Notes under the pieces: model-generated
What the model saw: the letters and a program-made list of their open reading frames with translations, nothing else
Databases searched by the model: none
What the model was told of the DNA's origin: nothing
Virus record (IMG/VR): IMGVR_UViG_2698536392_000024
Span: 1-15,087 of that record
Reading direction: 5' to 3' (one strand)
Length of the DNA: 15,087 bases
Origin: a virus
Taxonomy: Duplodnaviria; Heunggongvirae; Uroviricota; Caudoviricetes
Made by a program: the position numbers and the translations under genes
Part shown: positions 1 to 1,026 of the stretch, piece after piece
Position numbering within the stretch: the stretch's first letter is position 1
How the letters are laid out: each line of letters opens with the position of its first letter

Positions 1-173
1 TGTCAGTTATCATCTTCGGTTACGGTTATCGGCAGAACGCCCTGCCGCTGACAAGAGCTTATTTGCCTGACCAATCTACTCCACATGATAGATAACTATC
101 ATTTATAACATTTCATTGATTAGTCTTTATTTTTCATTGCGTTACAAATAACACCCCAGTCAAAAACAGCGAA

Positions 174-231
174 ATTAACTACACCATTAACTACACCGTT
201 TCACGAACAATATCGAACAACCACGAACAAA
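174..231. repeat. Tandem ATTAACTACACC x2 followed by three phased CGAACAA direct repeats
   Basis: ATTAACTACACC at 175-186 and 187-198 (the run 174-198 also contains one extra leading A); CACGAACAA / ATCGAACAA / CACGAACAA at 202-230 with 10-bp phasing; 17-mer 215-231 identical to 7892-7908. Confidence 0.4.
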
Positions 232-292
232 GATCAACACGCTTTAACCGTTATCATTTTCCGGCTATCCGTTATGAAGCTGGTGGATGTTC

Positions 293-318
293 CCCGATAT
301 GGGGATCCACATATCGGG
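293..318. repeat. 26-bp near-perfect palindrome
   Basis: CCCGATATGGGGATCCACATATCGGG: 12 of 13 symmetric pairs match; possible dimeric protein binding site. Confidence 0.5.
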
Positions 319-477
319 ATTAGATACCTGGATTTTTTTCCGGTTAACCTTTAATCAGGCTGGTGGGCTTTACATACCCTTGATCACGGTAATGATGATT
401 CAGGTGCGTACCTTTTCCCAGGTGGGGGTTTAATCATAAAACCGTAACGGTAATCGTTATGGTTGCCTTGATGATCT

Positions 478-650
478 GCGTGGTGATTATCATCACCCAA
501 AATCTGGGTGTTACTCTTACTACCCAAACTACGGGTAGTTTCCGTAGTTTCATAGTCGAGTTGCAGATCTGCAACTCCCCCATCAACCACAGGCGGAATT
601 CCGCCCTCGGTCATTTCTTAATCATCTGCGTGGTCATCATGACCATTCAC
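478..650. repeat. Cluster of short perfect palindromes and diverged older copies of the TAATCATCTGCGT-containing unit
   Basis: GGTGATTATCATCACC 482-497, AAACTACGGGTAGTTT 526-541, GTTGCAGATCTGCAAC 560-575, GGCGGAATTCCGCC 592-605, GGTCATCATGACC 632-644; ATCTGCGTGGT at 470-482 and 619-632. Confidence 0.6.
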
Positions 651-722
651 AAAAACATCATATTCGTGGTTTTTCTGTGCCCGACTTCCTGCATTGCAGG
701 TTTTCGAAAATATCAGCGGGTT

Positions 723-1016
723 AGCAAAGAGCAATTTTGCACTTTGCTTTAAGTTCAACCAGTTACCGCCAGCTTCCCCCAATGGGGGATTGTGAATAAT
801 CAACGGTTTAGGCCTTAATCATCTGCGTAAACATAAGTAATCATAATGATCATTCAGCCAGCGCAATTTTGCGCTTTGCTTTAAGTTCAACCAGTTACCG
901 CCAGCTTCCCCCAATGGGGGATTGTGAATAATCAACGGTTTAGGCCTTAATCATCTGCGTAAACATAAGTAATCATAATGATCATTCAGCCAGCGCAATT
1001 TTGCGCTTTGCTTTAA
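723..1016. repeat. Tandem direct repeat, 132-bp unit, about 2.2 copies
   Basis: 855-986 is repeated at 987-1016 (partial) and, slightly diverged at its 5' end, at 723-854; each unit contains hairpins AGCGCAA-TT-TTGCGCT and CCCCCAATGGGGG and the motif TAATCATCTGCGT. Confidence 0.85.
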
Positions 1017-1026
1017 TCTCAGTGAG

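Follow-up and report, generated by a model that had tools for sequence, protein, structure and literature searches.

What occupies the end of a phage satellite, beyond the point where its genes stop? The question is raised by the virus record IMGVR_UViG_2698536392_000024 (Caudoviricetes), whose stretch of 15,087 nucleotides was analysed at full length and is called the window here. A first-pass annotation, made from the letters alone, had described positions 1-1026 as a palindrome-dense left terminus carrying a 132-bp tandem repeat, and had offered for it an island end with its attachment (att) region, an array of protein-binding sites, a structured RNA array or a host repetitive extragenic element. 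Placed against 5,426 complete Escherichia coli genomes, the set to which all genome counts below refer, the stretch is a capsid-forming satellite of the phage-inducible chromosomal island (PICI) type, inserted between cspD/yljB and clpS, and positions 1-1026 are its integrase-distal end. The best explanation overall, to which we would give about an even chance, combines this identity with a non-coding spacer that would work as a terminator-like insulator or 3′-end structure, possibly bound by integration host factor (IHF).

The island boundary next to clpS

The left edge of the window is host DNA. Positions 1-106 match the cspD-clpS intergenic DNA of strain K-12 at 99% identity, and the match ends there. 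The host chromosome proper, 1-91, lies directly upstream of clpS, whose start codon in RefSeq genomes stands on the minus strand immediately to the left of base 1, and is matched in 5,425 of the 5,426 genomes. It is followed by an 11-bp att core, ATAACTATCAT (92-102), forming the integrase-distal junction. NZ_CP027325.1, which carries the same island, has this core at the integrase-proximal junction too, with 15 of 16 bases shared when the flank is included (GATAnATAACTATCAT); in K-12 the core has a single occurrence, attB, adjoining the stop codon of the small 24-aa open reading frame (ORF) yljB (K-12 locus L003, 2241-2315). Because the core is found at both junctions and only once in K-12, the start of the island is placed at position 103. 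The integration point is 92-102 bp upstream of the clpS start; yljB stays intact on the integrase side, and clpS is thereby set apart from its former upstream DNA by 15 kb. The proposal of a distal island terminus with an att region is thus supported by the K-12 match over 1-106 and by the core at both junctions, and covers only about 92-245.

Rightwards of the core, the att arm (103-245, plus strand) contains two families of short repeats, both detected by a tandem-repeat search: the direct repeat ATTAACTACACC, present twice at 174-197, and CGAACAA, present three times at 202-239 with 10-bp phasing. The other arm has both repeat types (ACTACACC and CGAACAA) as well, equally oriented and placed between the core and the ATG of the int gene; ACTACACC occurs twice in the arm and nowhere else in the window. 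Because the repeats are common to both arms and the integrase has an Arm DNA-binding domain, they are candidate arm-type integrase sites and AlpA/excisionase sites, which the integrase arm domain and an AlpA-type excision factor would bind. As for the array of protein-binding sites suggested earlier, the repeats of both arms fit it in silico, and the IHF-consensus boxes of the spacer described below are plausible binding sites only. A 10-bp-phased GAACAA triple repeat is also found at 7880-7908 (plus strand), upstream of the capsid and packaging operon. The repeat may be the target of one protein, possibly AlpA, that serves in excision and also activates late genes.

The assignment to the PICIs is based on several features of the whole window. 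In particular, the integrase lies at one end and the att core is repeated at both junctions; an AlpA-type regulator accompanies the island's own primase, to which origin iterons are adjacent. Every long ORF in the ORF list of the 15-kb window is on the minus strand, and a capsid and packaging set is contained in about 15 kb with no tail or lysis genes according to Pfam.

A spacer of conserved position and variable content

The non-coding spacer extends from about 250 to 1026 and ends at the stop codon of a minus-strand gene for a 93-aa protein of unassigned function (1027-1308; phrog_1561), which is the last gene of this island and, in all related islands examined, the last gene before the spacer. 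Pieces of 107-1026 are found in 1,105 of the 5,426 genomes, as a mosaic and in up to six places per genome, and the single spacer units in 303 to 1,241 genomes, in one to six places each. All the examined contexts, including the clpS, ydgV/tqsA and phoQ sites, show this DNA in one position, with the 93-aa gene on one side and a PICI end on the other; the islands concerned are capsid-forming ones, one of the Rpp type and EcCICFT073 itself. A host family of repetitive extragenic elements is not compatible with units confined to these genomes and, in the examined contexts, to PICI ends. The unit is not a common chromosomal repeat family foreign to the element, and the island boundary does not map to the right of the region. 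The phage database collection gave no match to 107-1026, and plasmids gave only three partial matches, to 320-420. The protein family of the 93-aa gene is itself narrow, with few remote homologues. A scan of genome contigs found one locus, and a scan of viral contigs with protein alignment returned close relatives only, many of them ending at the end of the gene.

The left edge of the variable part is formed by the block TTTTTCCGGTTAAnnnTnAATCAG-GCTGGTGG-GyTTTAC (335-373, plus strand), in which the octamer GCTGGTGG is a Chi site (359-366). Its consensus, TTTTTCCGGTTAAnnnTnAATCAGGCTGGTGGGyTTTAC, with the Chi octamer in central position, is invariant in 20 of 20 distinct aligned sequences that had been gathered through a motif unrelated to the block, and the block was found in 74 loci of the viral collection. 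In 72 loci, 199 to 765 nt separate the block from the 93-aa stop codon; the window has 693 nt. No spacer (0 of 72) contains genes, and a cargo hotspot for defence genes was rejected on this count. No examined island is without a spacer, the shortest being 199 nt. Three viral contigs (L144, L135 and L174) carry the block with no 93-aa gene in the available downstream sequence (about 5-8 kb; up to 9 kb), and in L144 the block occurs twice, 531 bp apart.

Between the block and the stop codon, a limited set of hairpin modules is shuffled, duplicated and deleted from island to island. The commonest module, of about 48 bp, consists in order of GTTACCGCGCC-GACTT, a palindrome, TTTCCGAAAAT and a box, ATCA(A/G)CnnGTTA, located 7-10 nt past the palindrome, and all such units have one orientation. 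The box fits the IHF consensus, WATCAANNNNTTR. Searched with a slightly relaxed pattern, WATCARNNNNTTR, it occurs 96 times on the plus strand and 0 times on the minus strand of 45 distinct spacers, the expectation from shuffles being 1.4. A perfect stem of at least 5 stands just before the box in 66 of 82 distinct units (11.2 ± 3.0 in shuffles). The hairpin comes in 28 different sequences, with CCTCAAATTGAGG, TCCCCCAATGGGGGA, CCTGCATTGCAGG and CAGCCGTTGGCTG as examples at one position, so that symmetry is kept while sequence changes. The array also merges with the neighbouring gene: the TTA of the last box (GAGTTACCGCC) is the stop codon of the 93-aa gene (1027-1029), and the unit borders echo the last codons and stop of that gene, GTTACCGCC. 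The spacer is a hairpin feature of conserved position and variable content that is typical of E. coli PICIs. One related spacer, L041, has an insert about 560-750 nt from the 93-aa stop, with several copies of iteron-like repeats (GGGTTAT/AACCCGCAA), that resembles a different replication origin.

Features of the spacer in the window

The palindromes listed by the first-pass annotation are real: those at 482-497, 526-541, 560-575 (in full 558-577), 592-605 and 632-644 (631-645) are perfect, and the one at 293-318 has 13-nt arms with one mismatch. When perfect hairpins with a stem of at least 6 and a loop of at most 6 are counted, 107-1026 contains 11 distinct ones, or 21 with those nested in others, against 1.8 ± 1.7 in dinucleotide shuffles. 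That is, this stretch has about a tenfold excess; other 920-nt segments of the island have 0-4 perfect hairpins, a region of C4/isrK RNA excepted. Compared with shuffles, the RNA fold of 285-1035 has z = -9.2 on the plus strand and -7.0 on the minus strand. The recurring motif that had been noticed, ATCATCTGCGT, is likewise present at 471 (with one mismatch), 621, 818 and 950, always on the plus strand, where 0.26 occurrences would be expected.

Read along the plus strand, the spacer first shows, upstream of the conserved block, a diverged copy of it, TTTTCCGG...GCTGGTGG (257-286, with a Chi site at 279-286), in direct repeat with 336-366 at a distance of 79-80 bp. The palindrome CCCGATATGGGGA/TCCACATATCGGG lies at 293-318, and with it comes a terminator-like hairpin (314-331), which has seven consecutive T behind it (333-339) and an equivalent on the same strand in the related spacer L139. 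The end of the invariant block is overlapped by a predicted promoter-like site, TTTACA-16 nt-AATGAT (369-396), also present in L139; two alternative downstream modules carry, as judged by eye, a -10-like hexamer matching 4 of 6 bases, 17 nt past TTTACC. The hairpin AACCGTAACG-GTAAT-CGTTATGGTT (440-464) includes a G.T pair, which is a wobble only on the plus strand. In five of its variants there are one or two G.T pairs but A.C pairs are absent, and one variant has one of each. The segment 467-510 contains the first copy of the recurring motif (471-481), and here follow the palindrome GGTGATTATCATCACC (482-497) and the terminator-like hairpin CACCCAAAATCTGGGTG (494-510).

This hairpin and those at 519-548 and 558-577 make up a highly conserved 94-bp module (496-589), never annotated, that is present at full length in 665 of the 5,426 genomes, in 647 of them at 90% identity or above, and also in an Rpp-type PICI whose flanks otherwise differ. 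All 7 of its 7 variable positions fall outside the three stems, as these were delimited by us. Further to the right are the palindrome GGCGGAATTCCGCC (592-605), degraded in an L004-type variant, the second copy of the motif (621-631) and the palindrome TGGTCATCATGACCA (631-645). The hairpin CCTGCATTGCAGG (688-700), replaced by CCTCAAATTGAGG in other islands, and the IHF-consensus box TATCAGCGGGTTA (711-723) constitute together a hairpin-plus-box unit (688-723); IHF-consensus boxes of the window start at 711, 798 and 930.

Rfam 15 has no match in 1-1400 at gathering score and no credible one at E up to 5. Other likenesses were tried and set aside: a XerCD/cer-like site, since the XerD arm is missing from GGTGCGTACC (405-414), a Fur box, to which TCATAATGATCATTC fits at only 10 of 14 bases, the resemblance of TTTTCCGGTT to the flank of lambda cosB, and restriction-site centres of the palindromes, all judged by eye and unconvincing. 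The GTTAGGC-like ends that might recall an integron attC are direct, not inverted, and the clustering of GATC (7 against about 3.6 expected) is unconvincing as well.

The right part of the spacer is a tandem array of period 132, with 2.3 copies and 96% matches (731-1034). Each full copy consists of two hairpin-plus-box units, the ATCATCTGCGT motif and the palindrome AATGATCATT. In copy 1 (728-859, plus strand), the hairpin A′ AGAGCAATTTTGCACT and a pseudo-box GTTCAACCAGTTA are followed by hairpin B TCCCCCAATGGGGGA (775-789), the box AATCAACGGTTTA (798-810), the motif (818-828) and the palindrome (845-854). Copy 2 (860-991) is 98% identical to copy 1, and the partial copy 3 (992-1034, 43 nt) includes hairpin A (992-1007) with the last codons and stop of the 93-aa gene. 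The tandem unit of about 2.2 copies seen at first is therefore real, with the correction that the near-identical pair consists of the two full copies, the third being partial. The terminator-like hairpin attributed to each unit, AGCGCAATTTTGCGCT followed by TTGCTTTAA, was scored as such on the plus strand at 860-875 and 992-1007, but not in copy 1, where the hairpin (AGAGCAA..TTGCACT) is interrupted by an A.A mismatch.

The five closest genomes differ only in having exactly one 132-bp copy fewer, and the matches listed for the 307-bp array in the 5,426 genomes cover no more than 172-222 bp of it. Copy 2 is hence best read as an extra, strain-specific duplication, because the additional copy is absent from all 5,426 genomes. 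The closest genomes show the ancestral state of 1.3 copies, in which a 43-bp direct repeat occurs twice at a spacing of 132 bp. From these repeats the extra copy of this strain would have arisen by slippage or unequal crossing-over. The 2.3-copy array might also be an assembly artefact.

With regard to genes, the ORFs of at least 50 aa in 1-1026 are those at 384-614, 434-586 and 618-803 on the minus strand and at 459-752 on the plus strand. Where scanned, the three longest matched no family in Pfam, PHROG or NCBIfam. Across related islands the ORF from 459 is not kept open, ranging from 6 to 97 aa, and variable sites show no clear excess at third positions. The statement that the first kilobase has no convincing ORF holds on these grounds: no family matches, and frames that are not kept open in relatives. 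A 70-aa ORF across the invariant block in EcCICFT073 was also rejected, since a stop interrupts it in most islands. Many related spacers (L127, L139, L124 and others) have a module, absent here, in which four GTCAC repeats and the inverted repeat TGACGT..ACGTCA accompany a 23-aa hydrophobic ORF, MVA[SL]MVCVVIMT...; the module also includes ACGGTTAAACCGT, a good terminator-like hairpin that leads into TTTTT.

A possible role in transcription and its alternatives

The favoured explanation is that the hairpins of the spacer act at the level of transcription. Because nearly all terminator-like features point antisense to the island genes, the array may halt transcripts coming from the att or host side, or from the promoter-like site, before they enter the packaging operon in antisense. 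The same hairpins would constitute the structured 3′ end of the long mRNA of the packaging operon, and the IHF-type boxes might recruit IHF, as the RIB/RIP elements of E. coli do at the 3′ ends of transcription units. The terminator-like sites on the plus strand of the window are those at 314-331, 494-510, 860-875 and 992-1007, and L139 has three, all on the equivalent strand. The imperfect stems contain 60 G.T against 36 A.C pairs. On the strength of the terminator strand, the promoter-like site, the G.T bias and the wobble variation of the 440-464 hairpin, the evidence leans, if weakly, towards structures that are read on the plus strand, antisense to all island genes.

Several observations weigh against this explanation. 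The terminator count, 4 against 1.3 ± 1.3 expected, is not significant alone, and the related spacer L006 has one predicted terminator on each strand. Only about three T follow the hairpins, in short and interrupted tails (TTTGCTTT, TTTCC), so that each would be a weak terminator. A mutational process, and not selection, could be what preserves the perfect palindromes, and the one at 592-605 is degraded in a close variant. Moreover, the compared sequences are kin by descent, so that the counts of distinct units are not independent. Finally, no host gene reads into the island on the plus strand at the clpS site; an insulator there would consequently concern only transcripts that start inside the spacer.

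It is conceivable, albeit unlikely, that the promoter-like site at 369-396 (plus strand) drives structured small RNAs whose modules differ from island to island: the site is found at the same place in two module types, terminator-like sites follow downstream on the same strand, the 440-464 hairpin tolerates only changes compatible with the plus strand, and the 94-bp module, conserved at 90% or above in 647 genomes, has its substitutions outside the stems. However, no Rfam family and no clean U-tails are recognised, the modules are dispensable (L123 passes from the block directly to 48-bp units), L153 is without the TTTAC -35 element, and both strands fold about equally well. A literature search found no small RNAs in prophage Sp7 of the O157:H7 strain Sakai, and Esr41, a small RNA of enterohaemorrhagic E. 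coli, was rejected as a counterpart, being encoded on SpLE1. That the region encodes small proteins, for example a hydrophobic peptide resembling a type I toxin from the ATG at 459 or the ORF at 384-614 (minus strand), is very improbable. Although this ATG sits in the 3′ arm of the 440-464 hairpin and opens a 23-aa hydrophobic ORF in eight sequence variants of other islands, the length of the ORF swings between 6 and 97 aa, 4 of 4 substitutions in the 23-aa version alter the amino acid, and the ORFs are strings of palindromes with no family matches.

The spacer might also have no function, being a neutral graveyard where slippage and recombination between related islands have left duplicated pieces of 3′ ends and terminators. 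In keeping with such a graveyard, its length (199-765 nt) and the order of its modules are free to vary, the end of the 93-aa gene with its stop is repeated at unit borders, the most recent duplication belongs to this strain alone, and one palindrome decays without compensation. What makes this improbable is the palindromy kept over 28 hairpin sequences, the orientation of the boxes (96 to 0), the invariance of the block, the substitution-free stems of the 94-bp module and the presence in all examined islands of a spacer of at least 199 nt. A function exerted by the DNA itself is a further candidate, and a rather doubtful one: an array for IHF, and perhaps for the 93-aa protein or the integrase, that forms a bent complex aiding excision and integration or packaging. 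In its favour are the match of the boxes to the IHF consensus, their strict orientation and the constant place of the array beside the 93-aa gene and the att arm; the module at 519-548 also holds three AAACTAC, similar to the arm repeat AACTACACC. Against it, the att core is 600-900 bp away from the boxes and the likely cohesive-end (cos) site at least about 2.4 kb away, and the palindromes are too diverse for one specific binder. As for the 93-aa protein, its AlphaFold model has three long helices and a short C-terminal one with moderate quality (pLDDT 68), and the fold search gave no significant match, the best in PDB being uninformative at E = 0.97; a role as DNA binder was set aside. A packaging site (cos), or a second replication site like crr of phage P4, might also be sought in a region that is non-coding, repeat-rich and adjacent to terminase genes, in an island whose primase and origin iterons are P4-like. 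The P4 crr is a 120-bp direct repeat. The spacer has hardly any chance of being either: none of the 15 matches to the P4-type iteron CTGTTCACC in the window falls within 1-1026, which led to the rejection of a crr-like site, the lambda-like cosN sites of Rpp-type relatives are upstream of the 93-aa gene and outside the spacer, and the spacer is common to islands with different packaging systems. The cos reading was rejected on the location of cosN in the relatives and on a GC-rich, cos-like gap in this island, at about 3380-3440 between a 60-aa ORF on the HNH side and terS, which is likely to be its cos site. The window contains no cosN-like match; the gap 3323-3444 carries GGGGTGGGGGG ... CCCGACCCCGCCC, GC-rich. 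A last possibility, and again an unlikely one, is that the Chi block and the oriented array of hairpins and IHF boxes form together a functional, satellite-specific module needed for the life cycle. Such a module could tame RecBCD and serve as a recombination hotspot driving the shuffling, or could supply variable small RNAs from the promoter-like site.

Chi sites across the island

The Chi sites of the spacer are part of a more general enrichment. The window contains 16 Chi octamers, 7 on the plus and 9 on the minus strand, whereas 0.44 are expected from shuffles; besides the two plus-strand sites of the spacer, they include those at 1687-1694, 4464-4471 and 14968-14975. In 40 related islands the mean is 1.05 per kb, about five times the average of the E. 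coli genome. The enrichment would blunt the attack of RecBCD on the linear DNA of the satellite. No Gam-like gene was noticed in the ORFs scanned, a subset of those in the window. The Chi site of the invariant block has identical flanks elsewhere in the island, as 354-371 (plus strand) is identical over 18 nt to an inverted copy at 1682-1699 (minus strand) in the large terminase gene, terL. With flanks, the likeness extends to about 24 of 29 bases; terL there codes for NIRLVGFD, and the inverted identity is conserved in several islands.

Gene content of the island

All island genes described here are on the minus strand. In transcription order, they start with a tyrosine integrase with the Arm DNA-binding domain PF13356 (13849-15087, Pfam) and AlpA (13221-13517; PF05930), and proceed with a DUF4222 protein to a P4/D5-type primase with D5_N, DUF5906 and Pox_D5 domains (9532-11139). 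Adjoining the primase gene are 9 of the iteron matches (at most one mismatch), at 9296-9518. A single-stranded DNA-binding protein (SSB) and a PerC-family protein come next. The capsid part includes an HK97-type major capsid protein (6505-7662, Pfam), with prohead protease and portal next to it, a head-completion protein and a gp6-like connector; it is followed by an HNH endonuclease, a P27-family small terminase and the large terminase in two ORFs. A frameshift divides terL (within 1322-2982), leaving the ATPase part in one ORF (2209-2982) and the nuclease part in another (1322-2215), and in the closest RefSeq complete genome the large terminase is likewise annotated as frameshifted, a pseudogene. 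With its terL split, this copy of the island may be unable to package itself.

Two further observations concern the rest of the window and a relative. A C4 antisense RNA (72.6 bits) and isrK (69 bits) lie side by side at 12204-12388 (minus strand) according to Rfam, in an arrangement that resembles P4/P1-type immunity regions; this is the sole other palindrome-rich stretch of the window. In the O157:H7 Sakai genome, the relative at the phoQ site (NC_002695.2, 1609371-1609592) is annotated as "prophage Sp7; untypable", which ties an old prophage name to the capsid-forming PICI family.

Significance and relation to known systems

PICIs of E. coli are under study, and being engineered, for the delivery of genes; here the end of one such island is mapped exactly. 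The approximately 0.2-0.8 kb after the last gene turns out to be a recognisable feature, so far unannotated, that hundreds of islands share across different packaging systems. Should the array serve as an insulator of transcription or bind IHF, synthetic PICI designs ought to retain the spacer; should it be dispensable, its length would be available for cargo. The Chi enrichment suggests, in addition, how satellites with no evident RecBCD inhibitor may guard their linear DNA. Overall, the finding is mostly explained and does not amount to a new class of element, though a few of its features seem undescribed; the oriented hairpin and box units, the invariant Chi block and the Chi enrichment are the parts that most deserve attention.

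The island shares gene content and order, from integrase through TerL, with the capsid-forming PICIs of the literature, whose genes and cos sites are described in the papers on them (bioRxiv 10.1101/2022.09.08.507074; PMC6092414; PMC6739421); in the passages of these papers that matched term searches, there is no mention of the terminal spacer. EcCICFT073, a PICI of the Rpp type, ends in the same 93-aa gene and in a spacer of like architecture. Phages that are rich in Chi and have no RecBCD inhibitor are known from work on lambdoid phages, as summarised in PMC8791490, and the strong over-representation of Chi on both strands is common to them and the island. The present case differs in that the element is a satellite and that one Chi lies inside the only invariant non-coding block; no title or abstract in the literature search suggests an earlier description of Chi enrichment in PICIs.

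The att region corresponds to attP sites of the lambda/P4/P2 type, which likewise have a short core, flanking arms with direct repeats common to both arms and an integrase with an arm domain; an IHF-like site near the core is present in relatives. Cox of phage P2 is a regulator with two roles, and the GAACAA triple at a second site suggests a similar regulator here.

As for the spacer, the closest parallel is offered by the RIB/RIP elements (BIME-1, a class of bacterial interspersed mosaic elements), reportedly composed of repetitive extragenic palindromic (REP) sequences flanking an IHF site at the 3′ ends of transcription units (Boccard and Prentki 1993; Oppenheim et al. 1993). The spacer is different in having diverse palindromes and no REP consensus, to which 1-1026 has no match with up to 3 mismatches, and in having one hairpin per box, not two inverted REPs. 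Its units are, furthermore, confined to satellite islands and not dispersed over the chromosome. Like RIB/RIP, it is extragenic, lies 3′ of a transcription unit and combines a hairpin with an IHF-consensus box in tandem units of varying copy number; it thus appears to resemble the known extragenic hairpin/IHF repeats without belonging to them.

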